A stretch of 64,000 nt of DNA, from contig JAFDDA010000001.1 of assembly GCA_019311105.1 (NCBI GenBank), positions 325 to 64,324 of the forward strand, in the 5' to 3' direction. Origin of the DNA: Deltaproteobacteria bacterium (lineage in GTDB: Bacteria > Myxococcota_A > UBA9160 > JAFDDA01). Positions 9,223-64,000 of this stretch are shown one piece after another. Each line of letters begins with the position of its first letter. Position 1 is the stretch's first letter. The notes under the pieces are model-generated. The model made no database searches, had not been told where the DNA came from, and saw nothing but the letters and a program-made list of their open reading frames with translations. Made by a program: the position numbers and the translations under genes.

Positions 9223-11994
<2,772 letters not shown>

Positions 11995-13168: not shown

Positions 13169-13237
13169 CGAAGGCGCTCGTGGGTGCGGCGCCGATGGAG
13201 GCTCAGCCATCGGGCCAGATCGGCCGATGGAAGCTCC

Positions 13238-14878
13238 ATGGCGCGCACCCTTGCTCGCACGAGTTGCCTCCTCCTGGCCCTGCTTCTCGCCTGCGGCGGC
13301 GAGACGCCCCGGGACCAGCTGGCCCAGATGGGCGTCCCGTTCTCGGCAGGGAGCTTTCTCGACGCAGCAGAGGATGGCGACCTCCACGTGGTGCGCCTCT
13401 TCCTGGCCGCCGAGATGGCTCCGAACGAGAGTGACGCCAGCCGCCGGACGGTCCTGGCCGCCGCGGCTGCCGCCGGTCACGACGACGTGGTGGCAGAGCT
13501 CCTCGCCGCGGGCGCCGACCCGAACGTCTCGGACCAACAGATGCGCACACCCCTGATGGCGGCAGCAGAGGGCGGACACGCAGCGGCGACGCGGCGGTTG
13601 CTCGAAGCCGGGGGCAACGCCAACTCGCTCCGCATGGATGGCGTGACGGTGTTGATGCGGGCGGCGCGAGGCGGCCACACCGAAGTCATCGACGCTCTGG
13701 TCGGGCACGGGGTCGAGATCGATCGCCCGGACCAGTTCGGGAACACGGCACTCCTGCACGCCGCCGAGGCGGGCCATGCCGCCGCCGTGGTTTCACTCCT
13801 GGCGGGCGGAGCCGACCCGGATCTGCGGACGCGGATGAAGGGAACTCATGCGCTCGGCCTCGCGGCCGGCGGCGACGACGTCGAAATGGCGCGCGCGCTG
13901 CTCGACGCCGGGGCGGACCTCGAACGCCGTGACCTCGAACACGAGATGACGGCACTCGCGGTCGCTTCGCTCCGCGGCAACGTCGAAGTGGCACGCCTGC
14001 TCGTCGAGCGCGGCGCAGACCCCGAGTCGGTCGGTCGGGACGGACACACGGCCCTGATGCTCGCCGCCGACGAGGGCCACGCCGAGATCGCCCGGCTCTT
14101 GCTCGGACAGGGCGCCGAAGTCGACCGTCCTGAGACGTCGGGCGTGACCGCCTTGATGATCGCGTCGGCGAAGGGCCACGAGTCGGTCGTCGAGGCCCTG
14201 CTCGAAGCCGGCGCTGACCCGACGATCCAGACCGAAGGGCGCTATTCCGCGCTGTCGGCGGCTCGGCATGAAGGCCACGATTTGATCGCGGCCGCGTTGC
14301 GCACCGCAGCCCGAGCCCGCGTTGCCGCCCGGCCCGGCGCCCGACAGTGGGCGCGCTTTGCTCTCTACGGCGACGCCTACGCCGCGCCCGCGGGCTGGGA
14401 GGTCGTCGACCCCTTCCGGAGTGACGACGTCTTCTGGAGCGACTACAGCCTGGTGGGCGTCGATCCCGGCGAAGGCCCGCGGACCCGGCGAGCGTTGCTG
14501 CGCAACGGGGCGCTCCACTCCCAGATCCTGCTCGTGCGGGGCCCGACCCTCGAATGGATGCCTCGCTTCGTCGACCGGGTGGCACCGCTCGACGGGCGCG
14601 CGGGCATCCGCTTCACGGATCACACGCTGCGCAGCGCCGATGGCGTCACAGTCGACTATCTAAAGATCGACCTCGCGGCGGTCGGCGATGAGCCCGCCCG
14701 GCGCCAACTGCTCGGGATCGTCGACCTCGGCCGCGAGGCTCTCATCGTCGACGCGGGTGGCCCTGCAGACCGCTTCGACCCAACGGTCGTCGAGGGCTTG
14801 CTGCGTTCGCTCCGCGTCCGCACGGGCCCTGCCGCGGCGGTCCCCACCCAGCCCGCCGCGCCCGAGGCCCATCGATGA
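13238..14878 (+). CDS. ankyrin-repeat lipoprotein with uncharacterised C-terminal domain
   Basis: Lipobox LLLACG, then about 8-9 ANK repeats (G-TALM-AA--GH--V---LL--GAD). About 200 aa at the C-terminus have no motif I recognise. Confidence 0.85.
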   Translation: MARTLARTSCLLLALLLACGGETPRDQLAQMGVPFSAGSFLDAAEDGDLHVVRLFLAAEMAPNESDASRRTVLAAAAAAGHDDVVAELLAAGADPNVSDQQMRTPLMAAAEGGHAAATRRLLEAGGNANSLRMDGVTVLMRAARGGHTEVIDALVGHGVEIDRPDQFGNTALLHAAEAGHAAAVVSLLAGGADPDLRTRMKGTHALGLAAGGDDVEMARALLDAGADLERRDLEHEMTALAVASLRGNVEVARLLVERGADPESVGRDGHTALMLAADEGHAEIARLLLGQGAEVDRPETSGVTALMIASAKGHESVVEALLEAGADPTIQTEGRYSALSAARHEGHDLIAAALRTAARARVAARPGARQWARFALYGDAYAAPAGWEVVDPFRSDDVFWSDYSLVGVDPGEGPRTRRALLRNGALHSQILLVRGPTLEWMPRFVDRVAPLDGRAGIRFTDHTLRSADGVTVDYLKIDLAAVGDEPARRQLLGIVDLGREALIVDAGGPADRFDPTVVEGLLRSLRVRTGPAAAVPTQPAAPEAHR

Positions 14879-32961: not shown

Positions 32962-35403
32962 GTGGCTAAGGCTGCGGCGGCACGCCGTACCCGTGTGGCC
33001 GCGGCCACGACCCCGCCGGGCGGCGTCTGGGCGGAGGTGAGTGGCGTCGGCCTGGTCTTGCTGGCCATGCTGGCCACGCTGGCGCTCTCGACGTACGAGG
33101 CCTCCGACCCCCTCTTCGAACTCGGCTCCGTCGAGAACCGCGCGGGCGTCGTCGGCGCGCATCTCGCGGCCCTTCTCCAAGGCGGCCTCGGTTGGGGCTC
33201 CCTCGTTCTCGTCCTGGGCCTCGGCGTCGTCGGGGTCCGCTTGCTCCTGGGCCGCGGGGTATCTGGCGTTGCCGGGCGCACCTGGGTCGGGACGGCCCTG
33301 GCGGTGCTGGCCCTGGCCGCGTTGCCGCCCCTCGTCGATGCGGTGCGGCCCGACGTGATCCCCCACCCGGGCGGCGGTGTGGTCGGTGCCTGGCTGGCTT
33401 CGGGGGAGCGCGTGCTCCTCAGTCTCTGGGGTGCCTTGCTCCTGAACGGCTTCCTGCTCAGCATCGGGGTGCTCTACTTGTTGGGAGTCCCGACCGGGAC
33501 GGCCGTCGAAGCGTTGGTGCGGGTTGCGGGTTGGCTCGGAGCGGGGCTCGGCGTGATCGGCGGCGCGCTGGTCGCGGGCCTGACCGCGTTGGCCCACGGC
33601 GTGGTCGAGACCGGCCAGGGCGCTCGACGCGCGACATCCCGAGTCGTCGCCTCCCTTCGCCGCGGAGTTCAAGCTGGCGTCGTGTGGCGCGCACGGCGCG
33701 CGCGAAAGACCCAGGTCGTCGTGCCTCGAGACGACTCCGAGCTGCCGCCGCCGGGCCCGGCGGAAGCGAGGCCCGCCGCCCTGCCGCCGCCCGTCGCAGC
33801 GCGGCCCAAGAAGCCTGGCGAGCTCGAAATCGTCGACCATGAAGCCGACCGAGCGTCCAAGCATGCACCCGAGCAGGAAACGTTTGCCTTCTCCGAGGGT
33901 GGCGGCGGCGTGCCGTGGGTTCAGCCGGACATCGACCTCTTCAGCCGTCCGCCCGCCGGGCAGCGAAAGATCGACCCCGAAAGCCTGACCATGAACGCGC
34001 GCATTCTCGAGAAGAAGCTCGCCGACTTCAATGTGGGCGGGAGCGTGCTGAAGGTCCATCCCGGGCCGGTCATCACGATGTACGAGTTCGAGCCGGCATC
34101 GGGCGTGAAGGTGGGCAAGATCGTCGGGCTCTCGGACGACCTCGCCCTGGCGCTCCGGGCACTCTCGGTCCGCATCATCGCGCCGTTGCCGGGCAAATCC
34201 GTGGTCGGGATCGAGGTCTCGAACCCGGAACGCGAGACGGTCTATCTGCGCGAGATGCTCGAGGACGACAGCTTCCGCAACGCGTCCGGGAAGCTCACCC
34301 TGGCCCTCGGCAAGGACATCTTCGGAAACCCCGTCGAGGGCAACCTGGCACGCATGCCCCACCTCCTGGTCGCCGGCGCGACGGGCACGGGCAAGAGCGT
34401 GTTCTTGAACTCGCTGCTGTGCTCGCTCCTCTACCGCACCTCGCCCGCGGATCTGAAGCTCCTTCTCATCGACCCGAAGCTCCTGGAGTTGTCGATCTAC
34501 GAGGGGATCCCGCACCTGATCGCCGACGTCGTCACGAACCCGAAGCGGGCGGCGGGGGCCTTGGCGGGCATCGTCCACAAGATGACCGAGCGCTACCAGA
34601 TGATGGCCGCCATCGGGGTGCGCAGCATCGACCAGTTCAACGAACGCGCCGTGGAGGCCCTGGCCGGGGGCGAGACCCACTTCGAGCTGAAGAAGAAGCC
34701 GGGGGAGGAGCACGCCGAGGAAGTCGCCTGGCGCAAGCTCCCCTACATCGTCGTCGTCGTGGACGAGCTCGCCGACCTGATGGTCGTGTGTGCGCGCGAC
34801 GTCGAAGAGGCGCTGCAACGTCTGGCGCAGATGGCGCGGGCGGCCGGCATCCACCTCGTGCTCGCGACCCAGCGGCCGAGCGTCGACGTCCTGACGGGCG
34901 TGATCAAGGCGAACTTCCCGGCACGGATCAGCTTCCAGGTTTCGTCGCGCACCGACTCGCGCACGATCCTCGATCAGAACGGTGCCGACACTCTGTTGGG
35001 CAACGGCGACATGCTCTTCCTGCCGCCCGGGACGTCGAAGATGCAGCGCATCCACGGCGCGTTCGTGACCGAGAAGGAGGTCTCGGCCCTCGTCGAGGCC
35101 TTGCGTGCCCAGGGGGCTCCGGAGTTCGACGAGACGATCATCCGCATGAACGAGGAGATCGACGCGGGCGGCAGTGGCGCATTGCCCGGCGACGACGGCG
35201 GGAGCGACGAGCTCTACGACCGCGGCGTCGCCGTCGTGACCGAGACGCGCAATGCGTCCATCTCCTACCTCCAACGCCGGTTGAAGATCGGATACAACCG
35301 GGCGGCTCGGATGATCGAGCAGATGGAGGAGGAGGGGCTCGTCGGGCCGAATGAAGGGACTAAGGGGCGGCAGGTTCTCGTTTCTGCGATCGAACCTGAG
35401 TGA
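32962..35403 (+). CDS. ftsK: DNA translocase FtsK
   Basis: N-terminal TMs, Walker A GATGTGKS, VVVVDELADLM, ATQRPSVDV and the C-terminal gamma domain SISYLQRRLKIGYNRAARMIE. Confidence 0.95.
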   Translation: MAKAAAARRTRVAAATTPPGGVWAEVSGVGLVLLAMLATLALSTYEASDPLFELGSVENRAGVVGAHLAALLQGGLGWGSLVLVLGLGVVGVRLLLGRGVSGVAGRTWVGTALAVLALAALPPLVDAVRPDVIPHPGGGVVGAWLASGERVLLSLWGALLLNGFLLSIGVLYLLGVPTGTAVEALVRVAGWLGAGLGVIGGALVAGLTALAHGVVETGQGARRATSRVVASLRRGVQAGVVWRARRARKTQVVVPRDDSELPPPGPAEARPAALPPPVAARPKKPGELEIVDHEADRASKHAPEQETFAFSEGGGGVPWVQPDIDLFSRPPAGQRKIDPESLTMNARILEKKLADFNVGGSVLKVHPGPVITMYEFEPASGVKVGKIVGLSDDLALALRALSVRIIAPLPGKSVVGIEVSNPERETVYLREMLEDDSFRNASGKLTLALGKDIFGNPVEGNLARMPHLLVAGATGTGKSVFLNSLLCSLLYRTSPADLKLLLIDPKLLELSIYEGIPHLIADVVTNPKRAAGALAGIVHKMTERYQMMAAIGVRSIDQFNERAVEALAGGETHFELKKKPGEEHAEEVAWRKLPYIVVVVDELADLMVVCARDVEEALQRLAQMARAAGIHLVLATQRPSVDVLTGVIKANFPARISFQVSSRTDSRTILDQNGADTLLGNGDMLFLPPGTSKMQRIHGAFVTEKEVSALVEALRAQGAPEFDETIIRMNEEIDAGGSGALPGDDGGSDELYDRGVAVVTETRNASISYLQRRLKIGYNRAARMIEQMEEEGLVGPNEGTKGRQVLVSAIEPE

Positions 35404-35420: not shown

Positions 35421-35542
35421 GGCCGGCGTGGCGAGGGCTTCTCCGGCGAATGGCTCGGCCGCGGTGGGGCGGGGTCTCAGCCTCGGACTCTCTTGCGCGG
35501 CCTGTGCTTTATTTCGCCGGAGAAGCCCTCGCCACGCCGGCC
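35421..35542. repeat. palindromic element copy A (perfect 30-bp stem, 62-nt loop)
   Basis: 35421-35450 GGCCGGCGTGGCGAGGGCTTCTCCGGCGAA is the exact reverse complement of 35513-35542. The loop begins TGGCTCG and ends GCTTTAT. An inner 7-bp stem pairs GGCCGCG with CGCGGCC. Confidence 0.9.
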
Positions 35543-35608
35543 TCTTGCCTGCTCGAGCGCAGAAACGTGGTGCGAATCTTCCTGGGGGTTTCGGTGTCTA
35601 ACCCGACG

Positions 35609-36289
35609 ATGGTGAGATTGATCGTCGCGTTGTTGGCTTTGGGTTTTCCGGCTTGGTCGGCCGCGGCTGATGATTTGGAGCTGGATCGGTCTTGTGCTTC
35701 TTCGGTTGCCGGGAAGGTGCAGGGCCACTACGAGGCGATCTCGGATTGGTCGGCCTCGTTCGAGCAGACTCGGAAAGCGGCTTCGTTTGGCCTCGGCGGG
35801 GCCGCTCGGGCCGAACCCACTCGCCAGGGCACGGTGGTGTTCTCGAAGCCGGGGCGGATGCGGTGGAGCTATGTCTCGCCGGATCCGAGCTTGTTCGTCA
35901 CGGACGGGCAGGTGGTGTGGATGTACGATCCGCTGCTCGGTGAAGCCCAGCGTCTCACGGACGCCGGGGGGCTCCTTTCCGGCGCTGCGGTGCGTTTCCT
36001 GATGGGGCAGGGCGATCTTGCCGATTCCTTCACCATCACGGCGGCCGACTGCTCGGTTTCGCCCATCCGGCTCGACCTCCTGCCCAAGAAGGACGAGGGC
36101 TACGAGCGGCTCGCCCTCGACGTCGACCCCGAGACCGGGCGCGTGGTGGCGAGCACGGTCACCGACCTCTTCGGGAACCAGACCCGCGTCGCCTTCACGA
36201 ACGTGCAGATCAACACCGGGCCCGACCCGGCGCTGTTCACCTTCGATCCGCCCGAGGGCGTCACGGTGATCGATCTCGGGGCCCCGTGA
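35609..36289 (+). CDS. lolA: outer-membrane lipoprotein carrier protein LolA
   Basis: Signal peptide MVRLIVALLALGFPAWSAAAD. F-Q-GTVVFSKPGRMRWSY...DG-VVWMYDP pattern. Confidence 0.85.
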   Translation: MVRLIVALLALGFPAWSAAADDLELDRSCASSVAGKVQGHYEAISDWSASFEQTRKAASFGLGGAARAEPTRQGTVVFSKPGRMRWSYVSPDPSLFVTDGQVVWMYDPLLGEAQRLTDAGGLLSGAAVRFLMGQGDLADSFTITAADCSVSPIRLDLLPKKDEGYERLALDVDPETGRVVASTVTDLFGNQTRVAFTNVQINTGPDPALFTFDPPEGVTVIDLGAP

Positions 36290-37106: not shown

Positions 37107-38939
37107 ATGAGCGAGTACGACTCCGGGTCTGGATCTGGGCGCAAGGGTTTCGTGCGGGACGTGATGCGGCGCATCACGCCGGCCAATCCTCATGATGAAG
37201 AAGGCAACCCCACGGGCGAGCCCGACCCGCGCCAGGAGGCCGACGATCTGCGCGACGCGATGAAGTTCTTCGGGACCGACTCCACGGAGTTCCGCCGCCG
37301 GCTCGACCGGCTGATGGCGGAGTTCGAAGCGCTGCGACGGCGCTACGAACTCGTGCGCGATCAGCACGCCGATGCCGAGCGCCAGAACGAAAAGCTCGTC
37401 GGCACACTTCAAGAGGCGAAGCAGCAGATCGAACTCCTCAAGGAGGAGGTCGACAAGCTCTGCGCCCCGCCCAACAGCTATGGGATCTTCCAGCGGGCGA
37501 ACAAGGACGGCACGGCCGAGATCGTCATCGACGGCAAGCAGATGCGCGTCAACGTCCACCCGAACCTGGACCCGTTCCAGCTCGAGGACGGCCAGCTCTG
37601 CGTGCTGAACGAGGCATTCAACATCGTCGAGCCCGCGGGCTACACCTCGCGGGGCGAGATCGCGACGGTGTCCGAGGTGCTCGAGGACTTCCGGGCCATC
37701 GTGCTGGGCCACACCGACGACGAACGTGTCGTGACCCTGGCCGAGCCGCTGCGTGGCGAGAAGCTCAAGGCCGGCGACAACCTGATGATCGACCCGCGCA
37801 CCCAGTACGCCTTCGAGCGGATGCCGAAGTCGTCGGTCGAGGAAGTCGTGCTCGAGGAGGTGCCCGACGTCACCTACGACGACATCGGTGGCCTGGAAGA
37901 GCAGATCGGCGTCCTGCGGGATTCGGTCGAGCTGCCCTACACGCACCCCGAGGTGTTCGCGGAGCACCAGCTCTCGCCGCCCAAGGGCATCCTGCTCTAC
38001 GGCCCTCCGGGCTGCGGCAAGACGCTGATCGCCAAGGCGGTGGCCAACAGCCTCGCCAAGAGCATCGAGGCCCGCACGGGCCGCTCCACGCCGGCGTACT
38101 TCCTGAACGTGAAGGGGCCCGAGCTCCTGAACAAGTACGTGGGCGAGACCGAGCACAAGATCCGTGAGGTCTTCAAGAAGGCGCGCGAGAAGGCGAACGA
38201 AGAGGTCCCCGTGGTGATCTTCTTCGACGAGATGGATTCGCTCTTCCGCATGCGAGGCTCCGGCATCTCCTCGGACATGGAGGCCACCGTGGTCGCCCAG
38301 TTCCTGTCGGAGATCGACGGCGTCGAGTCGCTGAAGAACGTGATCGTGATCGGTGCCAGCAACCGGCAGGATCTGATCGACCCGGCCGTGCTGCGGCCCG
38401 GGCGCCTGGATCTCAAGGTGAAGGTCCAGCGGCCGGATGCCAACGCTGCCCGCGCGATCTTCGCCAAGTACCTGACCGCCGATCTGCCCTTCCACCCCGA
38501 GGCGGAGCAGCAGTTCGGCAGCGACGGCGCGAAGATCGTCGATGGGATCATCCAGGAGACCGTCGACCGCATGTACAGCACCGAAGAGGAGAACAAGTTC
38601 CTCGAGGTGACCTACGCCAAGGGCGAGCGCGAGATCTTCTACTTCAAGGATTTCTCGAGCGGCGCCATGATCGAAAACATCGTTGCACGCGCCAAGAAGA
38701 TGGCCGTGAAGCGGGTGATCGATCACGACGAGCGCGGCATCAAACCCGAGGATCTGATCGCGGCGGTCAACGCGGAGTTCAAGGAGAACGAAGATCTCCC
38801 GAACACCACGAACCCCGACGACTGGGCCCGCATCTCTGGCAAGAAGGGTGAGCGCATCATCAACGTCCGCACGCTGATGACCGGCATCAGCCGGAAAGAG
38901 CGCTCGATCGAGGACGTCAACTCGGGGCAGTATCTCTAG
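37107..38939 (+). CDS. mpa: proteasome-associated AAA ATPase (Mpa/ARC)
   Basis: Coiled-coil N-terminus, OB region, Walker A GPPGCGKT, Walker B VVIFFDEMD and the C-terminal docking motif GQYL. GGAGAGG lies upstream of the ATG. Confidence 0.95.
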   Translation: MSEYDSGSGSGRKGFVRDVMRRITPANPHDEEGNPTGEPDPRQEADDLRDAMKFFGTDSTEFRRRLDRLMAEFEALRRRYELVRDQHADAERQNEKLVGTLQEAKQQIELLKEEVDKLCAPPNSYGIFQRANKDGTAEIVIDGKQMRVNVHPNLDPFQLEDGQLCVLNEAFNIVEPAGYTSRGEIATVSEVLEDFRAIVLGHTDDERVVTLAEPLRGEKLKAGDNLMIDPRTQYAFERMPKSSVEEVVLEEVPDVTYDDIGGLEEQIGVLRDSVELPYTHPEVFAEHQLSPPKGILLYGPPGCGKTLIAKAVANSLAKSIEARTGRSTPAYFLNVKGPELLNKYVGETEHKIREVFKKAREKANEEVPVVIFFDEMDSLFRMRGSGISSDMEATVVAQFLSEIDGVESLKNVIVIGASNRQDLIDPAVLRPGRLDLKVKVQRPDANAARAIFAKYLTADLPFHPEAEQQFGSDGAKIVDGIIQETVDRMYSTEEENKFLEVTYAKGEREIFYFKDFSSGAMIENIVARAKKMAVKRVIDHDERGIKPEDLIAAVNAEFKENEDLPNTTNPDDWARISGKKGERIINVRTLMTGISRKERSIEDVNSGQYL

Positions 38940-39066
38940 GCGCCTCGCATCTGGAAACACGGGGAGTTCGCCTGTCGGGCGGGCTCCCCGTCGCTTCCTG
39001 TGCCTCTGCGCTCTGGATGCAGCCCCGGGAAAAGGCACTATGCTCAACGGCCGAATCGGGGGTTAG

Positions 39067-40551
39067 ATGGCCATTCCCAAGGTGATGGGCACCGAGTTGG
39101 AGTACGGAATCGCGGTCCAGAACGACCGTGACTTCGACCCGATCTCCAGCTGCGTGTTGCTCGTCAACGCCTACCGGGAAGAGCACGACGCCAAGATCCT
39201 CTGGGACTACGACCAGGAGAATCCTCTGGCCGACGCCCGCGGCTTCCAGGTCGAGGGCGAGAAGTACACGCCCAATCAGCAAGAGAACATCGCGCGCAAC
39301 AAGACGTTGGTGAACGGCGCGCGCTACTACGTCGACCACGCCCACCCCGAATACTCCTGCCCCGAGGTCACCAACCCGCGTGATCTCGTCGTGCACGAGA
39401 AGGCCGGCGAGCGCGTCCTCGACCTCAGCCGCATCGAAGCGAACGCACTGCTGCCCGAGGGCACGCAGATGCTCATCCACAAGAACAACAGCGACGGCAA
39501 GGGCAACAGCTACGGCTCCCACGAGAACTACCTCATGGACCGCCGCACGCCCTTCAAGCAGATCGTCGAGCATCTGATGCCGTACTTCGTGACGCGTCAG
39601 GTCTACAGCGGCGCCGGCAAGGTGGGCAGCGAGAACCGCGCTCAGCCCTGCGACTACCAGCTCAGCCAGCGCGCCGATTTCTTCGAGACCGAGGTCGCCC
39701 TCGATACGATGGTGAAGCGGCCCATCATCAACACGCGCGACGAACCCCACGCCGATCGCGAGAAGTATCGCCGCCTGCACGTGATCGTGGGCGACGCCAA
39801 CATGAGCGAGCCGACGATCTTCCTGCGCAACGGCGCCACGGCGCTCGTGCTGGCGATGATCGAGGACGGCACGATCCCCGGCTCCTTCGCCCTGCGCGAC
39901 CCGGTGCGAGCGATCAAGGAGGTCTCCCACGACCCCGATTGCAAGCAGGAGATCCAGCTCGCGGCGGGCAAGAAGCTCACCGCGGTCCAGCTCCAGCGCG
40001 AGTACTGCAACCTCGCCATGAACTACGTCACGCAGAACGAGCTCGACCCGAGCTACAAGGACGTGGTCGAGATGTGGCAGCGCGTACTCGACTCGCTCGA
40101 GCGCGACCCCATGGAGGTCGTGAGCGAAATCGACTGGGTCGCGAAGAAGGCGATGATCGAGAGCTTCATGGAGCGCAAGGGTCTCGACTGGGGTGCGGCG
40201 CAGGCGCGCCTGCTCGACCTCCAGTTCCACGACGTGCGCAAGGAAAAGGGTCTCTACTACCTGCTCGAGCGCCAGGGCCGCATGAAGCGCCTGGTGACCG
40301 ACGAGGAGATCGAGGCGGCCATCACCGAGCCGCCCGAGGACACGCGGGCCTACTTCCGGGGCCAGTGCCTGAAGCGCTTCCCGAGCGAGGTGTTCGGCGT
40401 GAACTGGGACTCGATCTCCTTCGGGATCGGCGACGAGCCCATCAAGCGCATCTTGATGGTCGAGCCGCTGAAGGGGACCAAGGCCCACGTCGACGATCTG
40501 CTCACGAGTTCGACCTCTGCAGCCGATCTGGTGAAGAACCTGCGGGCTTAG
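39067..40551 (+). CDS. dop: Pup deamidase/depupylase Dop
   Basis: [46 protein letters not shown] and [29 protein letters not shown]. Its position between mpa and pup matches the actinobacterial order. Confidence 0.9.
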   Translation: [494 protein letters not shown]

Positions 40552-40590
40552 GGGCCCGGGATCACGGGCTGCGCGCCCTGGAGAATGACC

Positions 40591-40791
40591 ATGGCACAGG
40601 AAAAAAAGCAGAAGGGCGGCGGCGGCGGCGGCGAGGAATCGTCGGGCAAGGATGCCGGCGGCCAGAAGCTCGCCAAGAAGGGCGAGGAGCTGAAGGAAGA
40701 GATGGACGCCCTGGTGGACGAGATCGACGAAGTCCTCGAAGAGAACGCCGAGGAATTCGTGAAGAACTACGTCCAGCGCGGCGGCCAGTAG
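40591..40791 (+). CDS. pup: prokaryotic ubiquitin-like protein Pup
   Basis: MAQEKKQKGGGGGG...LVDEIDEVLEENAEEFVKNYVQRGGQ is close to the mycobacterial Pup layout and ends in GGQ. ATG 40591 lies 7 nt after GGAG; ATG 40585 is the alternative. Confidence 0.9.
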   Translation: MAQEKKQKGGGGGGEESSGKDAGGQKLAKKGEELKEEMDALVDEIDEVLEENAEEFVKNYVQRGGQ

Positions 40792-40825
40792 GAACTACGC
40801 ACGCGCCCAGCGCGGCGGCCAGTAG
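40764..40825 (+). repeat. tandem duplication of the pup 3' end including the stop codon
   Basis: GAACTACG-T-CCAGCGCGGCGGCCAGTAG (40764-40791) is followed by GAACTACG-CACGCGC-CCAGCGCGGCGGCCAGTAG (40792-40825). Confidence 0.85.
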
Positions 40826-40903
40826 AGACCAGACGCACCCGGGGAGCCGGGTGTCGACAAGACCTTACGCACCCGGCCAGCGGGGCGTCGATTCGGGGGG
40901 ATC

Positions 40904-41692
40904 GTGTTCTTTCGCAACGGGTATTCGGGCTGGCGGTCCGGCTACCAGGGTTCGAGCTTCATCGAGTTGCTGGGTGAAGATGCCCAGCACCTGGCGCCCA
41001 ACTTCGAGGCCCTCGCGCAGGGCTCGATCGAAGAAATCCCGCACGGGACCACCGTGTGCAGTTTCAAGTTCAGCGACGGCGTGGTGATGGCGGGCGACCG
41101 TCTGGCGACGGCCGGCCACTCGGTGGCGTCGCGCGAAGTCCAGAAGGTCTTCGCCACCGACGCCCACTCGATGATCGCCATCGCCGGCGCGGCCGGCCCG
41201 GCCATCGAGATGGCGCGCGTGCTTTCGGTCGAGCTCGAGCACTACGAGAAGATCGAAGGCGAGCGCCTCGAACTCGACGGCAAGGCGAACAAGCTCTCCC
41301 AGATGATCCGGCAGAACCTCCCGGCGGCCATGCAGGGCCTCGCGGTGGTGCCGCTGTTCGCGGGCTACGACCTGCGGCGGCGCGTGGGCCGCATCTGGCA
41401 ATACGACATCACCGGCGGCCGCTACGAAGAGGGAAACGCCGAGACTTCCGGCTCGGGTGGCCTCTACGCCCAGGAGCACATCAAGAAGACCTGGCGCGAG
41501 GGGATGAGCAGTCAGGACGCCCTGGACGTGGCCGTCGGCGCCATCACGGCGGCTGCGGACGAAGACCGGGCTACAGGCGGCATCGATTTCGACCGCGGGA
41601 TCTTCCCGATCGTGAACGTCTGCACCGAGGCGGGCATCACGCGCGCCACGGACGACGAGGTCCGCGCGAGCTACGAACGGCTGAGGAGCTAA
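40904..41692 (+). CDS. prcB: 20S proteasome beta subunit
   Basis: Propeptide followed by the HGTTV catalytic Thr context. GSGG motif. GTG start after GGGGGG. Confidence 0.9.
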   Translation: MFFRNGYSGWRSGYQGSSFIELLGEDAQHLAPNFEALAQGSIEEIPHGTTVCSFKFSDGVVMAGDRLATAGHSVASREVQKVFATDAHSMIAIAGAAGPAIEMARVLSVELEHYEKIEGERLELDGKANKLSQMIRQNLPAAMQGLAVVPLFAGYDLRRRVGRIWQYDITGGRYEEGNAETSGSGGLYAQEHIKKTWREGMSSQDALDVAVGAITAAADEDRATGGIDFDRGIFPIVNVCTEAGITRATDDEVRASYERLRS

Positions 41693-41697
41693 CCGAC

Positions 41698-42396
41698 ATG
41701 TCGATGCCGTTCTACGTCTCCCCCGAACAGCTCATGCAGGACAAGGCCGAGTACGCCCGCAAGGGCATCTCGCGCGGAAAGTCCATCGTCACCCTCGAGT
41801 TCGCGGGCGGGATCCTGCTGATCGCAGAAAACCCGTCGAAGAGCCTCCAGAAGATCGGCGAGATCTACGATCGCATCGCCTTCGCGGGCGTCGGGAAGTT
41901 CAGCGAGTTCGACCAGCTCCGGAAGATCGGGGTTCGCTACGCCGACACGCGCGGCTACGCCTACAGCCGTGACGACGTACGCGGCAAGGCGCTCGCCAAC
42001 GCCTATAGCCAGGTGATCGGCGAGACCTTCACGCGCGAGATGAAGCCGCTCGAGGTGGAGATCATCGTGGCGGAGGTGGGCGACCCCCGCTTCGTCGGCC
42101 ACGAAGAGAACTCGATCTACCGCGTGCGCTTCGACGGCAGCATCAGCGACGAGCACGGCTTCTGCGTGATCGGCGGCAACGCCGAGCCCCTCGAGGCCCA
42201 GCTCCAGTCGAGCTTCCAGGAAGACATGGACCTCGCGGCCGTGGTCCGCGCGGGCCGCGACGCCCTCGGTCGCGCCGAGAACGGCGACCCGGACCTCGGC
42301 GCCGCGAACCTCGAGGTCTGCCTCCTGGAGCGTGAGCACGAGGGTCGAAAGTTCCGCCGCCTCCCCCAAGACGAGGTCGCCGGCCTCCTGGCCTAG
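41698..42396 (+). CDS. prcA: 20S proteasome alpha subunit
   Basis: MSMPFYVSPEQLMQDKAEYARKGI...IYDRIAFAGVGKFSEF matches the bacterial PrcA pattern. GAGGAG lies 9 nt upstream. Confidence 0.9.
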   Translation: MSMPFYVSPEQLMQDKAEYARKGISRGKSIVTLEFAGGILLIAENPSKSLQKIGEIYDRIAFAGVGKFSEFDQLRKIGVRYADTRGYAYSRDDVRGKALANAYSQVIGETFTREMKPLEVEIIVAEVGDPRFVGHEENSIYRVRFDGSISDEHGFCVIGGNAEPLEAQLQSSFQEDMDLAAVVRAGRDALGRAENGDPDLGAANLEVCLLEREHEGRKFRRLPQDEVAGLLA

Positions 42397-42425
42397 GGCC
42401 TTCGCCGCCGGCCTAGGGCCTTCGC
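42390..42425. repeat. 20-bp-period tandem duplication carrying both convergent stop codons
   Basis: GGCCTAGGGCCTTCGC occurs at 42390-42405 and 42410-42425. Copy 1 supplies the prcA TAG (42394-42396). Copy 2 supplies the minus-strand TAG (42415-42413). Confidence 0.85.
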
Positions 42426-43219
42426 GGCCGCGCCACGGCCAGGCCTGCCAACGCTGCGAGGCCGAGCAGGCCTGCGATCGTCGGCTCGGGGACCGCCGTG
42501 GCCAGCAGCTCGCCCCCCGGCCCGCGGATCTCGAGCTCGACGGGGTTCCCGTCGCCGTCGAAGCCCTCGAAGCCGTCCACCACCACGGTGTTGAAGAAGT
42601 CGAGCACCAGCCCGCCGAGCAGCGCCGAGACGCTGAGCGTGCTGCCGAGGATGAGTGGCGCCCCGGATGTGAAGCTCCACTCCACGGTCATGCTTTCGGC
42701 GAAGGCGCCAGCGGAGTTCTCGTCGAAGCTCCAGTTCACCTGGGTGTTGCTCGCGCTCAGCACGGTGGCGTCGCCGGTCGCTTCGATGAGCTGGGCGCCG
42801 GCCCAGTCGGATCTGAGGAAGCCCGCGGTGTTCGTCACACCGCTGCCGACGGAAACCTGACCCGTCAGCAGGATCGTCGCTCGGAACGTCCCGCTCGTGG
42901 CACCGGTGACCACGACGGTTTCGGAGAAGCCCGTCACGGCGGCCGCCTGGTGCAGGCTCGACAGCGGAGTGCCCGTCGTGTCCGCCAGGCCCCGGAGGAC
43001 GCCGAAGCCGACCTGAGCCTTGGCCTCTCCCGCGGCGGTCGTGCACACGATCACGCTGGTGTCGGTGACCACGATCTGGCAGTTGGGGGCATCGTTCGCG
43101 CCCATACCCGCCGTGCCGGCCTTGATCGAGACGATCGCGGACAGGCTGAGTGCTGCGGCCGGGCCGGCACCGAGAAGGCCGACGGAGACTGCCAAGAACG
43201 CTGCGACTCGGGGCACCAT
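42413..43219 (-). CDS. PEP-CTERM sorting-domain secreted protein
   Basis: Signal peptide MVPRVAAFLAVSVGLLGAGPAAA. C-terminal VPEPTIAGLLGLAALAGLAVARPRRP gives VPEP, a TM segment and a basic tail. GAGGAG lies 6 nt before the ATG. Confidence 0.8.
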   Translation of the reverse strand: MVPRVAAFLAVSVGLLGAGPAAALSLSAIVSIKAGTAGMGANDAPNCQIVVTDTSVIVCTTAAGEAKAQVGFGVLRGLADTTGTPLSSLHQAAAVTGFSETVVVTGATSGTFRATILLTGQVSVGSGVTNTAGFLRSDWAGAQLIEATGDATVLSASNTQVNWSFDENSAGAFAESMTVEWSFTSGAPLILGSTLSVSALLGGLVLDFFNTVVVDGFEGFDGDGNPVELEIRGPGGELLATAVPEPTIAGLLGLAALAGLAVARPRRP

Positions 43220-43429
43220 CGGCGGCTCCTCGCACCCCCTCCCGTCCTGAGTGGTCGCAGCGGCGTTTCCATGTCAAATCGGGGCGTTTCGCCTCGCCTC
43301 CGGAAGCCCCTGAGAATGAAGGAGAAAACGGTCATCGACCGGTGGAAGTGCAACACTGGCGAAAGGTTCGCGGCGTTCCTGCCGATAGCGGAAGGGCTAC
43401 AGTGGTCCGGGCGGACCGGGTGGGGGCCT

Positions 43430-44836
43430 GTGCAGAAGCGGATTTTCGGGGTCGAGACCGAGTATGGGATCATCTTCACGCCCGAAGGGCGGAAGACCCT
43501 GCCCGTGGAGAAGGCGATCCGCTTCCTGTTCGAGAAGCTGATCACCACCGAGCACTTCCTGAACGTGTTCCTCGAGAACGGCGCCCGCTTCTACCAGGAC
43601 ACGGGGTGCCACCCCGAATACGCAACGCCCGAGTGCGCCGCGCCGCGCCAGCTGATCGTCTACGACAAGGCCGGCGAACGCATCCTCGAAGACCTGCAGA
43701 ACTACGCCGAGGAGAAGATCCGCGAGGAGCGCATCGCGGGGAAGCTCTCGATCTTCAAGAACAACACCGACTTCGTCGGCAACAGCTACGGCTGCCACGA
43801 GAACTACCTCGTGGACCGCGACGTCGACTTCTACTACCTCGCCGAGCAGCTGATCCCGTTCCTCGTGACGCGCCAGATCTTCACGGGCGCGGGCAAGGTC
43901 TTCCAGACCCAGGACGGCATCCACTACTGCGTTTCGCAGCGGGCCCAGCACATCTACCAGAAGATCTCGGGCACCACGACGAACGATCGCTCGATCATCA
44001 ACACGCGCGACGAGCCCCACGCCGACCGCGAGAAGTACCGCCGCCTGCACGTGATCGTCGGCGACTCGAACATGAGCGAGTGGACGAACTTCGTGAAGAT
44101 CTCGTCCTGCGCCGTCGTGCTGCAGATGATCGAGGACAACTACATCCAGAACGACTTCACCCTGCGCAACCCGGTGAAGGCGATCAAGGACATCTCCTAC
44201 GACACGACGTGCAAGCGCAAGCTGCGCCTCGACAACGGCCGTGAGTACTCGCCCATCGACATCCAGCGCGAGTATTGCGAGCTGGCCCAGAAGTACATCG
44301 AGCACTACCCGGTGAGCGACGAGCTGAAGGAAGGCGTCGTCATGTGGCAGTACGCGCTCGACGCGCTCTCCACCGACCCGGAGAAGCTCGCCGACAAGGT
44401 CGATTGGCTGATCAAGCGGCGCATGATCCAGAGCTATCTCGACAAGCGGGGCGCCACCTGGAACGACCCGCGCGTCTTCATGCTCGACCTGCAGTACCAC
44501 GACATCCGTATGAACCGCGGCCTCTACTACCTGCTCGAACGGCAGGGCGCGGTGGAGCGCGTGCTCACCGACGAAGAGATCATCAAGGCCAAGACCGAGC
44601 CGCCCCACGACACGCGGGCGAAGATGCGTGGCGAGTTCATCAAACTCGCGCGCCAGAACGCCATCCAATACGACCTCGACTGGTCGAACATCCGGCTCGG
44701 CAACCTGCTGAACGTCCGGGTGATCTGCAACAACCCCTTCGAGACCGACACCGAGAAGGTGGCCGAGCTCGTCCGCACGATTCAGAAGACGAATCTGCGC
44801 AAGACGAGCCTTTCGAAGCTGGTGATCCAGTCCTGA
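43430..44836 (+). CDS. pafA: Pup-protein ligase PafA
   Basis: It starts (V)[12 protein letters not shown], colinear with the mycobacterial PafA N-terminus MQRRIMGIETEFG. Also [39 protein letters not shown] and [29 protein letters not shown]. GTG start chosen by homology. Confidence 0.9.
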   Translation: [468 protein letters not shown]

Positions 44837-46802: not shown

Positions 46803-46837
46803 GAAGGGCTCCGAGGCGCATCTCCTCGGGGCCCTTC
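46803..46837. terminator. 14-bp stem hairpin between convergent mreB and the SCP2 gene
   Basis: GAAGGGCTCCGAGG-CGCATCT-CCTCGGGGCCCTTC with one G-U pair. No U-tract. Confidence 0.45.
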
Positions 46838-46933
46838 GTCCTTCGGGGCCGGCACCGCGAGCCGTACGTGCGGCCCTCGGCTTCCTCCCGCGGCGAACCG
46901 AGCCCTCTCCGAGCCCGGGGCTCCGACGAACGG

Positions 46934-60274: not shown

Positions 60275-62269
60275 GTGACCGCGCCCTATGTGACCTCTCC
60301 GTTCGCCCCGCGGCGGCGCGCCACGCGTGAAGTGCTCGTGGGTGATGTCGGCATCGGCGGCGAGAACCCGATCCGCATCCAGTCCATGACCACGACGAAC
60401 ACCCAGGACGTGGCGGCGACGGTCGAGCAGACCGAACAGCTGGCCGCGGCCGGGTGCGAGATCGTTCGCATCACGGCGCCCTCGATCACGGACGCCGAGG
60501 CTCTGGCCGCGATCCGGGCCGAGCTCGACCGGCGCGGCGTCCGTGTCCCGCTCGTGGCCGACATCCACTACACGCCGAATGCCGCGATGGTGGCGGCCGA
60601 ACATGTGGAGAAGGTCCGCGTGAACCCCGGAAACTACGCGGACAAGAAGAAGTTCGCCGTGCGCGAATACGGGGACGCAGAGTGGCGGGCCGAAGTGGAA
60701 CGGGTTGCCGAACGCTTCCGTCCCCTGGTCCAGCGCTGTCGAGAGCTCGGGAGGGCGCTGCGCATCGGCACGAACCACGGCTCTCTCGCCGACCGCATCA
60801 TGAACCGCTACGGCGACACGCCCGAAGGCATGGTGCAATCCGCTCTCGAGTTCCTCGACGTGTGTGAGAGCGAGAGTTTCCGCGACGTCGTCTTCAGCAT
60901 GAAGTCGAGCAACCCCCAGGTGGCGATCCAGGCCTACCGGCTGTTGGCCGCACGGCTCGAGGAGCGCGCACCGGGCGAACCCTCCTATCCCTTCCACGTC
61001 GGCGTGACCGAAGCCGGCTCGGGCGAGGACGGGCGCGTGAAGAGCGCCATCGGGATCGGCGCGTTGCTCGAGGATGGCATCGGCGAGACGATCCGCGTGT
61101 CGCTGACCGAGCACCCGGTGAAGGAAGTGCCCGTCGCGCGGGCTCTCGCGGCCTGCTACGAGGCGCGCTCGAAGCAACCCGAGGTCGAAGCGCCAGAGCC
61201 CGGAGCTGGCTATTGCGACGACCCCTTCGACCACGTTCGCCGAGCGTCGCACTTCGTCCGGGCGGGATGCGAGATCGGTGGCGAAGCGCCGGTGCGGGCG
61301 GAGCTCGAGCTTGGCGATGTGCCGGAAGACGCGGCGGGGCTGGCTCGCCGGCTGGCCGTCTCGTTGGCCGCGGCCCCGAACATCGAGTGCGAAGGCCTCA
61401 CGGTGAACGTTCGCAGCGAAGCCGATGCCGCTCGCGTGGAAACCCTCGCAGCGGAGTTGCGCCTGGTTGACATCGACGCGCCCCTCGCAGTGGTGGGCCC
61501 CCCTTCGCTTTCGAGCCAGGTTCCGTCGGCCGCGCGCTGGGTGGTGCCGCTGGCCCCGGGTGAGGACCCGGCCGAAGCGCTCGGCCTCGATCGCCCCGTC
61601 GAGTTACGCCTCGACGGTGCGCTCGTCGCCCTTCCGGGCCAGGTGGATGCCGTGCTCGACGCCGCTCGGGGGCGGATGGATCTGCTCTTCTCGACGGGCG
61701 CCTGGCCGCCCGTTCATGCGACCCGGACGCTCGCGGCGCAGCTGCGTGCCCGCGGCGCCGGGCATCCGATCGTCCTGCGTCACATCGGGCTCGGTTCGCA
61801 GGCCGACGACGAGGCGGCGCTTCTCGCTGCGGCCATCGATCTCGGCGCGCCGCTCTGCGACGGCCTCGGCGACGCCATCGTCCTGCCCGCGGGCAAGGAC
61901 CCGGGCCGCTCGCTCTCGCTCGGCTATCGCATCCTCCAAGGCGCGCGCCAGCGGACGACGTGGACCGAGTTCATCTCCTGCCCATCCTGTGGTCGCACGC
62001 TCTTCGATCTCGAGGAAGTCACCGAACGCATCCAGGCCCGCACGGGCCACCTCGAGGGCGTGAAGCTCGCGATCATGGGTTGCATCGTGAACGGCCCCGG
62101 CGAGATGGCCGACGCCGACTTCGGCTACGTCGGCTCGGGCCCGGGCCGGATCAACCTCTACGTTGGCAAGGAACTCGTCGAGCGGAACGTCCCCGAGGCC
62201 GAAGCCGACGACCGGCTCGTCGAGTTGATCCGAAAACACGGCCGCTGGATCGACGTGCCCGCCGCCTAG
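60275..62269 (+). CDS. ispG: 4-hydroxy-3-methylbut-2-enyl diphosphate synthase, long form with inserted domain
   Basis: IRIQSMTTT, RVNPGNY, RIGTNHGSL and the C-terminal motifs SCPSCGRT...GCIVNGPGE. At 664 aa it is about 300 aa longer than the short enterobacterial form. Confidence 0.95.
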   Translation: MTAPYVTSPFAPRRRATREVLVGDVGIGGENPIRIQSMTTTNTQDVAATVEQTEQLAAAGCEIVRITAPSITDAEALAAIRAELDRRGVRVPLVADIHYTPNAAMVAAEHVEKVRVNPGNYADKKKFAVREYGDAEWRAEVERVAERFRPLVQRCRELGRALRIGTNHGSLADRIMNRYGDTPEGMVQSALEFLDVCESESFRDVVFSMKSSNPQVAIQAYRLLAARLEERAPGEPSYPFHVGVTEAGSGEDGRVKSAIGIGALLEDGIGETIRVSLTEHPVKEVPVARALAACYEARSKQPEVEAPEPGAGYCDDPFDHVRRASHFVRAGCEIGGEAPVRAELELGDVPEDAAGLARRLAVSLAAAPNIECEGLTVNVRSEADAARVETLAAELRLVDIDAPLAVVGPPSLSSQVPSAARWVVPLAPGEDPAEALGLDRPVELRLDGALVALPGQVDAVLDAARGRMDLLFSTGAWPPVHATRTLAAQLRARGAGHPIVLRHIGLGSQADDEAALLAAAIDLGAPLCDGLGDAIVLPAGKDPGRSLSLGYRILQGARQRTTWTEFISCPSCGRTLFDLEEVTERIQARTGHLEGVKLAIMGCIVNGPGEMADADFGYVGSGPGRINLYVGKELVERNVPEAEADDRLVELIRKHGRWIDVPAA

Positions 62270-62769
62270 GGCAAGGGTGGGGCCGCGACATCGACGCCGC
62301 CGAGTTCGCCACCGGAGGTGACTCCACGCGCCTCGTCGATGAAGGCCAGCGCTCGGGAATCCACGAGCGAAATGTGATCGCGCCCGACCGCCGCCGCCGC
62401 GCCCGCCAGGATCAACCCGACCACCAGCAGCCCTTCTGCCGTCCCGAGCAAGCCGCCCCCGAGTCGGTCCGCCCAGCCGAGGCCCGCCGCTCGGACGCCG
62501 CGCTTCACGATCTTCCCCACGATGACGACCGCGCCCACGACGCTGATGACGAGCAGCACGCCCGACCCGACCCGCAGCGTGAAGTCGCCCCAGCCGACGC
62601 CGGCTTCGGTACGAAGCCACGCCGCCAACGGATCCGTGAACAACCGAACCGCAATGATGGCCCCGCCCAGCGCCACCAGCGAGAACGCCTCTCGGATCAT
62701 CCCGATCAGCAACCCGCGAGCCGCCGCAATCGTCAAGATCCCGAGCGCCAAGACATCGACTGCCGCCAC
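62266..62769 (-). CDS. cvpA: CvpA-family membrane protein
   Basis: Four TM segments and the CvpA-like N-terminus VDVLALGILTIAAARGLLIGMIRE. Its stop shares CTAG with the ispG stop. Confidence 0.8.
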   Translation of the reverse strand: MAAVDVLALGILTIAAARGLLIGMIREAFSLVALGGAIIAVRLFTDPLAAWLRTEAGVGWGDFTLRVGSGVLLVISVVGAVVIVGKIVKRGVRAAGLGWADRLGGGLLGTAEGLLVVGLILAGAAAAVGRDHISLVDSRALAFIDEARGVTSGGELGGVDVAAPPLP

Positions 62770-62837: not shown

Positions 62838-62953
62838 GCGGCCGGGCCCGATGAGGGTTCCGGCGAATGGCTCGCGTTGGTGCGCCTCGATGGCGCGGGA
62901 CACCCGGGCGGGCTGCGCTTTATTTCGCCGGAACCCTCATCGGGCCCGGCCGC
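62838..62953. repeat. palindromic element copy B (perfect 30-bp stem, 56-nt loop)
   Basis: 62838-62867 GCGGCCGGGCCCGATGAGGGTTCCGGCGAA is the exact reverse complement of 62924-62953. The loop begins TGGCTCG and ends GCTTTAT, as in copy A. Confidence 0.9.
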
Positions 62954-62967
62954 GCCCTACATGGGCC

Positions 62968-63402
62968 CTACGCCGGCGGTTGCTGGTAGAGATAGGCCCG
63001 CAGGCTCCGAATCTCTTCGCCCTGCTCTTCGATCTCGTCCCGCAGCAAATCCCGCATCGAGATCATGCCGATCACACGTCCCTCGGTGACGATGGGCAGG
63101 TGCCGGCACCCCGCGTTGCGCATCTTGTCGATGGCCGATTCGCGGTCGTCGCCGAGCCCGGCCGTGACGACATCGCGCGTCATCACGTCCGACACGCGCA
63201 CGCTGCGGACATCGCGGCCCGGGACCACGACGCGCGTCATCAGGTCGCGCTCGGAGAAGATCCCAACGAGTCGCTCCCCCTCGACGACGGCCATGGCGCC
63301 GATGCCGCGCAGGGCCATCTGGCGCGCCGTCTCGAAGACGGTGCTGTCCGGCGAGGTATGGATGACGTGCTGGCTTCGAAGGACGCGTTGAATGTTGTGC
63401 AT
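62968..63402 (-). CDS. CBS-pair domain protein
   Basis: Two CBS repeats (VIHTSPDSTVFETARQMALRGIGAMAVV and VMTRDVVTAGLGDDRESAIDKMRNAGCRHLPIV). ATG at 63402. Confidence 0.8.
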   Translation of the reverse strand: MHNIQRVLRSQHVIHTSPDSTVFETARQMALRGIGAMAVVEGERLVGIFSERDLMTRVVVPGRDVRSVRVSDVMTRDVVTAGLGDDRESAIDKMRNAGCRHLPIVTEGRVIGMISMRDLLRDEIEEQGEEIRSLRAYLYQQPPA

Positions 63403-63544
63403 GGCGTACACCCCCTGTCTGGGCGTTCTCGCCGTGCGGCGCCCGGCGAGAGCGCACACCTGATCCTTCTCAGAAAATGGGGTCGATGTAAAGAGGGGGC
63501 GTCTGGCCGCACCCCGGCTCGGCTCGCAACCAGCGCGTGGAACC

Positions 63545-64000
63545 CTACGGACCTGCGTCACTTTTCTGTGACGGGCCGCCTGCCATCCGCAGATACGTGC
63601 GGGCCTCGTCGAGGCTCGGGTCGCACTCGAGAGCGGCCTCCCACTCGGCGCGTGCCTCGGCGTTTCGGCCTACGCTCCAGTGTGTCACGCCGAGCTGGAC
63701 GCGTGCGCCGTGTTGGAGCGGGTCGACGCGCAGGATCCGTTCGAGTTCGTCGATCGACTGAGCCGGGCGGCCCGCCTCGCGCAGCGCGATCGCAAGACGC
63801 AGGCGGATGTCGTGGAACGCCGGGCCGTGCTCCAACGCCTTGCGGTAGGCGAGGGCGGCTTCGACGGGTTCGCCGACCTCCCGGTAGGCGTCCCCGAGGG
63901 TCGCGTGCAGGTTCGCGAGCTTGCCGAGCGTCGTCGCGTCGAGCCGGCCGTGGCCGGGTTTCGCCACGGAGCGGGCCCCTTCTGCCAGGCCTCGCGCCCG
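63545..64000 (-). CDS. TPR-repeat protein (5' end outside the window)
   Basis: TPR-like A-Y---L--G repeats. The frame stays open upstream of the track start 63967 to the window edge. Confidence 0.6.
   Translation of the reverse strand, partial: RARGLAEGARSVAKPGHGRLDATTLGKLANLHATLGDAYREVGEPVEAALAYRKALEHGPAFHDIRLRLAIALREAGRPAQSIDELERILRVDPLQHGARVQLGVTHWSVGRNAEARAEWEAALECDPSLDEARTYLRMAGGPSQKSDAGP

Follow-up and report, generated by a model that had tools for sequence, protein, structure and literature searches.

The 64,000-nt stretch of contig JAFDDA010000001.1 analyzed here (GCA_019311105.1, Deltaproteobacteria bacterium), hereafter the window, carries the genes for RNR, Lgt, SSB, FtsK, LolA, a Pup-proteasome cluster, MreB, RecA, AlaRS, IspG and CvpA. 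It is an ordinary chromosomal region of a genome with a GC content of 68%, and the nearest named homologues of its LolA and CvpA are found in Myxococcota metagenome-assembled genomes (MAGs). Two of its intergenic spacers, flanked by syntenic core genes, each hold a long palindrome: copy A lies between ftsK and lolA, and copy B between a CBS-domain gene and cvpA. These two elements are the subject of this study, and we confirm that they are members of a real intergenic palindrome family in an uncultured, GC-rich, Myxococcota-like lineage, a family that is apparently undescribed so far. Among the 46 open reading frames (ORFs) of the window there is no transposase (Y1 included), reverse transcriptase or recombinase. 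All coordinates given for the two copies and their neighbors (Table 1) are those of the whole window, forward strand.

As the original prediction had described it, copy A consists of two fully complementary 30-bp arms enclosing a 62-nt loop that begins with TGGCTCG and finishes with GCTTTAT, and copy B shares its stem top and both loop ends, the 30-bp stem of copy B being likewise 100% complementary and its loop 56 nt long. The loop interiors had been called unrelated, which must be corrected, as a covarying inner helix common to both lies directly inside the conserved loop ends. In the 3' core of copy A, GCT is paired with GGC at 35452-35454 (one G.T pair included) and TTAT is unpaired. Copies A and B are the longest and best inverted repeats of the window, the runner-up measuring 31 nt with 71% complementarity; the 16-mers TCCGGCGAATGGCTCG and GCTTTATTTCGCCGGA occur twice each in the window, in these two copies only, and the 9-mer TCCGGCGAA of the stem top is similarly confined to them. 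Folded as RNA, the + strand reaches -104.7 kcal/mol for copy A and -98.2 kcal/mol for copy B, and the - strand -90.4 and -92.1 kcal/mol, respectively, with z-scores of -8.4 to -9.8 over both strands and none of 200 shuffles folding as well; folding as DNA yields -56 to -58.5 kcal/mol with similar z-scores. No third, degenerate copy was found in the window by a covariance model run with its filters off, the best remaining match being a 14-bp hairpin after mreB (E = 0.1). This latter hairpin (46803-46840) lies 34 nt past the mreB stop; its 14-bp stem contains one mismatch, its loop measures 7 nt and a clear U-tract is lacking. It is an example of a plain terminator-like hairpin in the same genome.

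The distances predicted for copy A relative to its neighbors hold, with one qualification regarding annotation: the automatic lolA call, at 279 aa, begins at ATG 35450, within the stem top of copy A itself. Since LolA homologues measure 227-240 aa, ATG 35609 is the likely start. Copy B, in turn, is flanked by two minus-strand genes and is therefore oriented to transcription oppositely to copy A, so that the geometry said to be shared by the two copies stands as to the distances of copy A and fails as to orientation, copy A being sense and copy B antisense to its neighbors.

Table 1. Copies A and B, their component parts and the flanking genes in the window.
Feature	Position	Strand	Remarks
Copy A, whole element, 122 nt	35421..35542	+	between ftsK and lolA, sense to both; covariance model 101.2 bits (+) vs 43.6 (-)
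Copy A left arm GGCCGGCGTGGCGAGGGCTTCTCCGGCGAA	35421..35450	+	35421-35441 variable outer stem; 35442-35450 (TCCGGCGAA) conserved stem top
Copy A 5' core block TCCGGCGAATGGCTCG	35442..35457	+	16/16 identity across four orthologous lineages
Copy A inner helix, 5' strand	35456..35463	+	partner strand 35496-35504
Copy A apical region	35464..35495	+	variable; orthologues barely alignable
Copy A inner helix, 3' strand	35496..35504	+	
Copy A 3' core block CTGTGCTTTATTTCGCCGGA	35502..35521	+	T-rich run after inner hairpin
Copy A right arm	35513..35542	+	perfect complement of copy A left arm
Copy B, whole element, 116 nt	62838..62953	+	antisense to CBS-domain gene and cvpA; covariance model 90.7 bits (+) vs 38.2 (-)
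Copy B left arm, 30 nt	62838..62867	+	stem top 62859-62867
Copy B 5' core block TCCGGCGAATGGCTCG	62859..62874	+	
Copy B 3' core block CTGCGCTTTATTTCGCCGGA	62913..62932	+	
Copy B right arm, 30 nt	62924..62953	+	100% complementary to left arm
ftsK	32962..35403	+	stop 17 nt upstream of copy A
lolA	35609..36289	+	probable true start, 66 nt downstream of copy A
CBS-domain gene	62968..63561	-	stop 14 nt from copy B
cvpA	62266..62769	-	start 68 nt from copy B

A gapped pattern made from the two core blocks was searched in GTDB representative genomes, viral contigs and JGI metagenomes. The metagenomes yielded 11 loci, 10 of which have the full architecture, with long paired arms that differ in sequence and an identical stem top and loop ends (metagenome contigs are labeled L003 to L030 below, with a and b for two copies on one contig). 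From 13 copies a covariance model, R1, was built; on one strand each copy reaches 67-128 bits, on the other 33-55 bits, with E-values of 1e-12 to 1e-25. R1 also revealed an extra copy, in L013, whose stem is a perfect 34 bp and whose loop is 97 nt. L013 thus has two copies in 6.5 kb, as the window has two in 64 kb. Taking the pattern scan, the covariance model and protein-anchored look-ups together, the architecture is present at approximately 11 independent intergenic loci. The same gapped pattern produced only two chance matches in the GTDB representative genomes, both in coding DNA with 7-bp stems, and none in the viral contigs, where single-block patterns, serving as a control, matched at 240 chance loci, none with long stems or arms. 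Searches by blastn gave one meaningless 38-nt match among plasmids and no match among phages. Rfam has no match anywhere in the window at gathering score, and at an E-value threshold over the element returns only generic hairpin noise of microRNA or VA-like type (E ~1); a literature search on the core sequence and on Myxococcus REP-like repeats returned nothing relevant. The original prediction had not recognized the palindrome as a described family, and the Rfam result agrees.

The family has a consistent anatomy. Elements are ~115-170 nt long and begin and end in an outer stem of 28-34 bp, of which the outermost ~21-25 bp are free in sequence and locus-specific and the 8-9 bp at the top have the fixed sequence (T)CCGGCGAA/TTCGCCGG(A). 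Inside this lies an invariant irregular junction, with TGGCTCG on one side and CTGCGCTTTAT on the other, composed of a U opposite a UUAU internal loop, GGC:GCU with an invariant G.U pair, a U.C mismatch and a bulged U; the sequence of the junction never covaries. It is followed by an inner helix of 6-8 bp, which does covary, and a free apical region of ~25-70 nt, giving whole loops of 54-97 nt. The sequence conserved in common between copies amounts to ~35 nt in total. Some caution is needed here, as the conservation of the core among paralogues is partly ascertainment, because an exact-core pattern was used to find them.

The pairing itself is beyond what chance provides. Across the alignment 96% of paired cells are complementary, compared with 44-51% when the partner is slid; both sides have changed in 21 of 32 pairs, and none of 500 shuffles reaches the observed pairing values. 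Stems are perfect in ten independent copies and have one to four mismatches in the remainder. In the outer stem there are 296 Watson-Crick cells, 2 G.T and 5 A.C, with essentially no one-sided changes against 80 cells changed on both sides. The earlier expectation that pairing is kept where stem sequence is not is thereby borne out, and the further metagenome copies, all with paired arms, speak against a chance resemblance of two sequences. Every copy has a G-rich 5' arm, and the outer stems of paralogues resemble each other more than shuffled controls do, which points to common descent of the element in its entirety, not of the core alone. As a separate observation, the 5' arms contain G-tracts such as GGGGTGGGAGGGTGG and GGGAGGGAGGGG (L013 1327-1360 and 4277-4306, and other left arms), and a G-quadruplex competing with the hairpin is conceivable there.

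Every copy is intergenic, at a distance of 6-37 nt from a stop codon, and both orientations occur. The copies are sense to the gene beside them at ~7 loci (ftsK-lolA, a biotin-carrier gene/nucleoside hydrolase spacer, dksA-tsaD, L010, L011, L013b and L027) and antisense to the adjacent genes at 4 (copy B of the window, L012, L013a and L014), the L010 copy sitting between convergent stops. No direct repeats that could be a target-site duplication surround any of 14 copies, the ends differ among copies save for a loose GGCCGG, and no promoter-like sequence is shared upstream of them. The absence of conserved terminal repeats and of a target-site duplication accords with the original prediction, and it is on these two grounds that we do not regard the element as a MITE. 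Correia elements (CREE/NEMIS) and other MITEs are of similar size, are also intergenic, and form long RNA hairpins open to cutting by RNase III. Typical of MITEs are terminal inverted repeats that are conserved, together with target-site duplications; the present family has neither. As regards a related autonomous insertion sequence (IS), the window has no transposase, and plasmids, phages and viral contigs gave no informative match.

The most instructive evidence comes from orthologous loci. In the ftsK-lolA spacer the element is present in the window, in L018/L019/L020, in L021/L023 and in L024/L026, and two more relatives have spacers of 200-206 nt there (spacer length only). The four-fold degenerate sites of lolA differ by 26-62% among these lineages, near saturation for most pairs. 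At this distance the 5' core is identical at 16/16 positions and the 3' core is 83-94% identical. For the apical region identity is 60-69%, with shuffles giving a baseline of 55%. The core thus appears to be held by purifying selection in situ, in a comparison free of the ascertainment bias of the pattern search. The stems of these orthologues measure 28, 30, 31/30 and 33 bp and differ by substitutions and indels; as the two arms of each element correspond in length, the indels are mirrored, a result that is hard to obtain via independent compensatory mutation. L018 and L021 differ by ~27-29% in their stems at a four-fold divergence of 26%, approximately the neutral rate, and pairing is still perfect. 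These comparisons show that the element has been inherited vertically at fixed sites over very long periods, in at least four lineages at ftsK-lolA.

Some relatives are without it. L004, whose LolA is 80-84% identical to those of L018 and L021 and groups with them, has a spacer of 98 nt that keeps GGGGCGACCTCCCCTCGCGGGCC (3903-3932), resembling the right arm of L021; L003 (3951-3978) retains of the stem bases only a GGGCCG-N14-CGGCCC hairpin of 6 bp; and L030 (71% identical), at the CBS-cvpA spacer (9880-9960), has a decayed remnant of the stem top. These remnants mark secondary loss by internal deletion, and the element is therefore dispensable. Only losses were observed, and no recent insertion. 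The 66 nt between copy A and lolA (35543-35608; TTGCCTGC..GCAGAAA..GCGAATCTTCC..GGTGTC.AA.CCGAC) are a separate matter: they are conserved even in the element-less relatives (L003 3981-4042, L004 3931-3999) and are probably the lolA promoter or 5' untranslated region.

Two further sets of orthologues add to this history. In the trio L006/L015/L016 the difference across the element is 6.5-8.9%, against 22-35% at four-fold sites, and the whole element is thus constrained in that lineage. At the CBS-cvpA spacer, L027/L029 have an element 9 nt from the CBS stop with a perfect 29-bp stem; their CvpA is 81% identical to that of the window and synteny is kept over 12 kb, and the orientation of the center relative to the genes is opposite to that in copy B. 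In-situ inversion of the center is the simplest reading.

How such an element might arise and persist is a question to which we offer a tentative answer. The reading we favor is that of a vertically persistent REP/ERIC-like palindrome whose arms would be homogenized at the DNA level and whose core would be a selected recognition or terminator-like module. One arm would periodically be recopied from the other, either by replication template switching or by intramolecular arm-to-arm conversion, and a single copying event of this kind could mirror substitutions and indels jointly and could also flip the center. The mirrored indels, the paucity of G.T intermediates, the near-neutral rate combined with perfect pairing and the flipped center would all follow from this single arm-copying process. 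It is established that template switching can produce, in one event, compensatory changes of several bases, perfect stems and inverted loops (PMC8794818). Hairpins generated in this manner resemble the present ones in their perfect stems, one-step multi-base compensatory changes and occasional loop inversion, but the mutational process was described in rRNA and microRNA genes (PMC8794818), whereas here it would operate in a dispersed family, on the 30-bp stem enclosing a selected core. The original prediction had left open whether the element was structure-selected or structure-generated; for the outer stem the latter is favored and a purely structure-selected origin is not, the core itself being apparently under purifying selection.

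The invariant junction resists this arm-perfecting process and therefore must be selected. Most plausibly, it would be a recognition module for a factor that reads a folded single strand, be it RNA or hairpin/cruciform DNA. Taken alone, the central region of the + strand folds at -20 to -40 kcal/mol and is then followed by UUUAUUU, the layout of an intrinsic terminator, and we propose this layout as the reason for the survival of a T-rich block in a 68% GC genome. The whole element, in transcripts of either orientation, would form a hairpin of -90 to -105 kcal/mol at the 3' end of a gene, and its most likely effect would be transcript-end punctuation through termination, protection from 3' exonucleases or processing by RNase III. 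Intrinsic terminators, including the U-tract-less 'I-shaped' hairpins of GC-rich bacteria, likewise place a GC-rich hairpin right after stops, as the + strand of our element places UUUAUUU after an inner hairpin. They differ in loop size, 3-8 nt as opposed to 54-97 nt for the family (25-70 nt for the loops of its inner hairpins), and the family is further set apart by its invariant irregular junction and by a U-tract enclosed within an extra 30-bp stem.

Several observations weigh against this reading, or against parts of it. The function proposed is inferred from anatomy and position alone. In neither orientation is the outer hairpin followed by a U-tract, UUUAUUU following the inner hairpin on the + strand only. 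About one-third of the copies (~4 of 11 loci) face the wrong way, antisense to their neighbors, and a unidirectional terminator is therefore insufficient as the whole account; that the junction never covaries likewise speaks against a simple terminator. The inner helix is only marginally richer in G.T pairs than the outer stem (Fisher p = 0.049). The set of orthologues that is free of search bias comprises only the protein-anchored ones (L018, L021, L024 and L027). In the trio, the stems each have 2-4 uncompensated transition mismatches and no compensated change, so that arm correction must be episodic, not continuous. Finally, the stem of copy B is no more like that of L027 than are those of random paralogues (score 1, null -0.5 +/- 2.9), and the opposite centers at CBS-cvpA could come from two independent insertions at one spacer.

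The first alternative to arm copying is that the element is a structured RNA motif, acting in cis or as a small RNA, in which compensatory selection at the RNA level keeps the stems and the internal loop binds an RNA-binding protein or directs processing by RNase III/E. We regard this as unlikely, though it has a good deal in its favor: two nested helices covary; the G.U pair (38:174) is invariant and the inner helix has four U.G and no A.C, on the + strand only; the + strand both outscores and outfolds the - strand; the core is conserved in situ across saturating divergence; and the trio element evolves 3-4 times slower than four-fold sites. What an RNA motif accommodates poorly is an outer stem that is almost purely Watson-Crick (2 G.T in ~300 cells) with mirrored indels, an orientation to the flanking genes that is mixed and differs even between orthologous loci, the lack of a promoter-like sequence common to the regions upstream of the copies, and the absence of a matching Rfam family.

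In kind, the family appears closest to the REP/REPIN and ERIC elements. REPs and REPINs are also short, non-coding, multi-copy intergenic palindromes found near gene ends in either orientation, and REPINs are inverted doublets whose variable middle folds to a hairpin and which persist vertically for long periods (PMC3337134, PMC3116915). It could accordingly be supposed that our element is a REPIN-like non-autonomous mobile element, copied as a single-stranded DNA hairpin by a HUH/RAYT-type transposase whose single-copy gene would lie elsewhere in the genome and which would recognize the junction. REPINs are inverted doublets that form hairpins and whose middle can vary and yet fold (PMC3337134), and the same is found here; the copies are several and scattered through intergenic DNA, in the window and in L013 alike; target-site duplications are absent; and the vertical persistence is long, as claimed for REPIN-RAYT systems. 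The differences make this origin more doubtful than that of an RNA motif. The conserved REP units of a REPIN are terminal and each is a small palindrome, whereas the conserved block of the present family is internal and asymmetric: the inverse correspondence of its two halves extends over just 9 nt (TCCGGCGAA), the next 7-10 conserved nt differ (TGGCTCG as against the reverse complement ATAAAGC), and no arm has a palindrome of its own or a GTAG-type tetranucleotide. REPIN copies are 94-98% alike in their REPs within a genome, forming a quasispecies, whereas copies A and B, with 64 kb of their genome covered, and likewise L013a and L013b, have nothing in common beyond the ~35-nt core. In contrast to REPINs, each arm has 21-25 outer bp that are locus-specific and yet perfectly paired. 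The lack of a Y1 transposase among the window ORFs and of any recent insertion also counts against it, and we know of no RAYT for the present family.

ERIC or IRU elements, which Hulton et al. in 1991 and Wilson & Sharp in 2006 are said to have described, are reportedly ~125-nt imperfect palindromes of transcribed intergenic DNA in enterobacteria, present in either orientation and stable at orthologous loci, with a proposed role in mRNA stability. The present elements are intergenic palindromes of similar size and also occur in either orientation, but ERIC elements are similar along their whole length where ours share ~35 nt; there is no sequence similarity to them by Rfam or BLAST, and the host phylum is another.

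It may also be imagined that an unrecognized hairpin- or cruciform-specific DNA enzyme reads the junction, catalyzes exchange from arm to arm and so keeps the arms perfect, and in doing so reversibly flips a unidirectional terminator. We consider this improbable, slightly more so than a REPIN-like origin; if true, the family would constitute a dispersed, recombination-driven system of orientation-dependent operon punctuation.

The division between a fixed inside and a free outside suggests a different kind of mobility, in which a smaller mobile core (approximately CCGGCGAA...TTCGCCGG) would have been inserted in the loops of pre-existing long terminator hairpins, leaving the outer stems as host sequence. 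The conserved sequence is indeed confined to the inner ~75-115 nt while outer stems differ per locus, all copies lie just past stop codons, where terminator hairpins occur, and the hairpin after mreB (46803-46840) demonstrates that ordinary post-gene hairpins exist in this genome. We nonetheless find this very unlikely. There is no empty long hairpin in the window, where other post-gene hairpins have stems of at most 14 bp; the junctions are without loop remnants or direct duplications, the junction bases of L008 being inverted (GCGG/CCGC), not direct; the G-rich 5' arms and the likeness of paralogous outer stems point to common descent of the whole element; and the element-less relatives hold deletion remnants where intact hairpins would be expected.

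Less likely again is an inverton, in which a site-specific recombinase would flip the 54-97-bp center that the perfect inverted repeats enclose, thereby turning a unidirectional terminator around. An asymmetric center between perfect inverted repeats, with a U-tract after the inner hairpin on one strand only, has the required form; orientation is mixed across loci, and the center at CBS-cvpA is oppositely oriented in the window and in L027/L029. In each of five populations, however, each assembled from 2-3 samples (L018/L019/L020, L021/L023, L024/L026, L027/L028/L029 and the trio), orientation is uniform between independent assemblies, opposite orientations being seen only between lineages, and at this level, that of assemblies, the inverton reading is therefore unsupported. 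The window encodes no recombinase, at 54-97 bp the invertible segment would be very short for synapsis mediated by proteins, and inversion leaves unexplained both the covarying inner helix and the need for 20 or more bp of stem, variable and yet perfect, beyond the conserved sites. Chance similarity or an assembly artifact has a negligible chance of being correct: the general caution that metagenome assemblers can make palindromic joins applies, but the copies lie inside long contigs, the architecture recurs in assemblies of many samples from JGI, ENA and Logan, and the covariance-model E-values and RNA-folding shuffles given above are decisive.

Other candidates were considered and dropped. 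Integron attC sites are recognized by structure rather than by sequence, are variable in length, have extrahelical bases and lie just past ORFs. They also have conserved outer ends (RYYYAAC/GTTRRRY), imperfect stems and a place in cassette arrays beside intI, none of which applies here, and the attC boxes RYYYAAC...GTTRRRY are absent from copies A and B; retrons and group II remnants were similarly rejected for want of their defining motifs or genes. An uptake signal made of inverted DUS/USS pairs was discarded because the 9-mer occurs inside the elements only, and a small ORF, suggested by the stem-top ATG in frame with lolA, because loops of 54-97 nt break the frame and LolA homologues have the shorter lengths given above. 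A sigma-54 or sigma-70 promoter in the core was likewise abandoned, the spacing being inconsistent and a promoter scan finding none. In the trio only, the loop (L006 7630-7666, and the equivalent in L015/L016) has a sigma-70-like CTGACA-N17-TTTATT ~45 nt upstream of the next gene, with no room for another promoter.

Elsewhere in the window, the Pup-proteasome cluster is complete (37107-44836), with an ARC/Mpa ATPase, two genes of the Pup-ligase family, pup itself (68 aa with a GGQ end, 40585-40791) and a proteasome subunit, and L003, L004 and L018 have in common both the cluster and its synteny with ftsK-lolA. A 564-aa protein encoded at 13184-14878 consists mostly of ankyrin repeats, which is unusual in bacteria.

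At a practical level, an element of this kind misleads gene callers, as the LolA start placed inside copy A illustrates, and deserves to be modeled in the annotation of such MAGs. Should the core turn out to be a module for protein recognition or termination, the element would also offer a portable, orientation-testable part for GC-rich bacteria. More broadly, the family adds a palindromic repeat to what is documented of a poorly known uncultured lineage, with a layout that is the inverse of that of REPINs and MITEs, an invariant inner core being surrounded by outer arms that are free in sequence and always perfect. Whether stems are maintained at the DNA level or at the RNA level is a long-standing question in stem evolution, and the orthologues described here, spanning near-saturating divergence, represent an unusually clean set with which to separate hairpin maintenance in DNA from compensatory selection on RNA.

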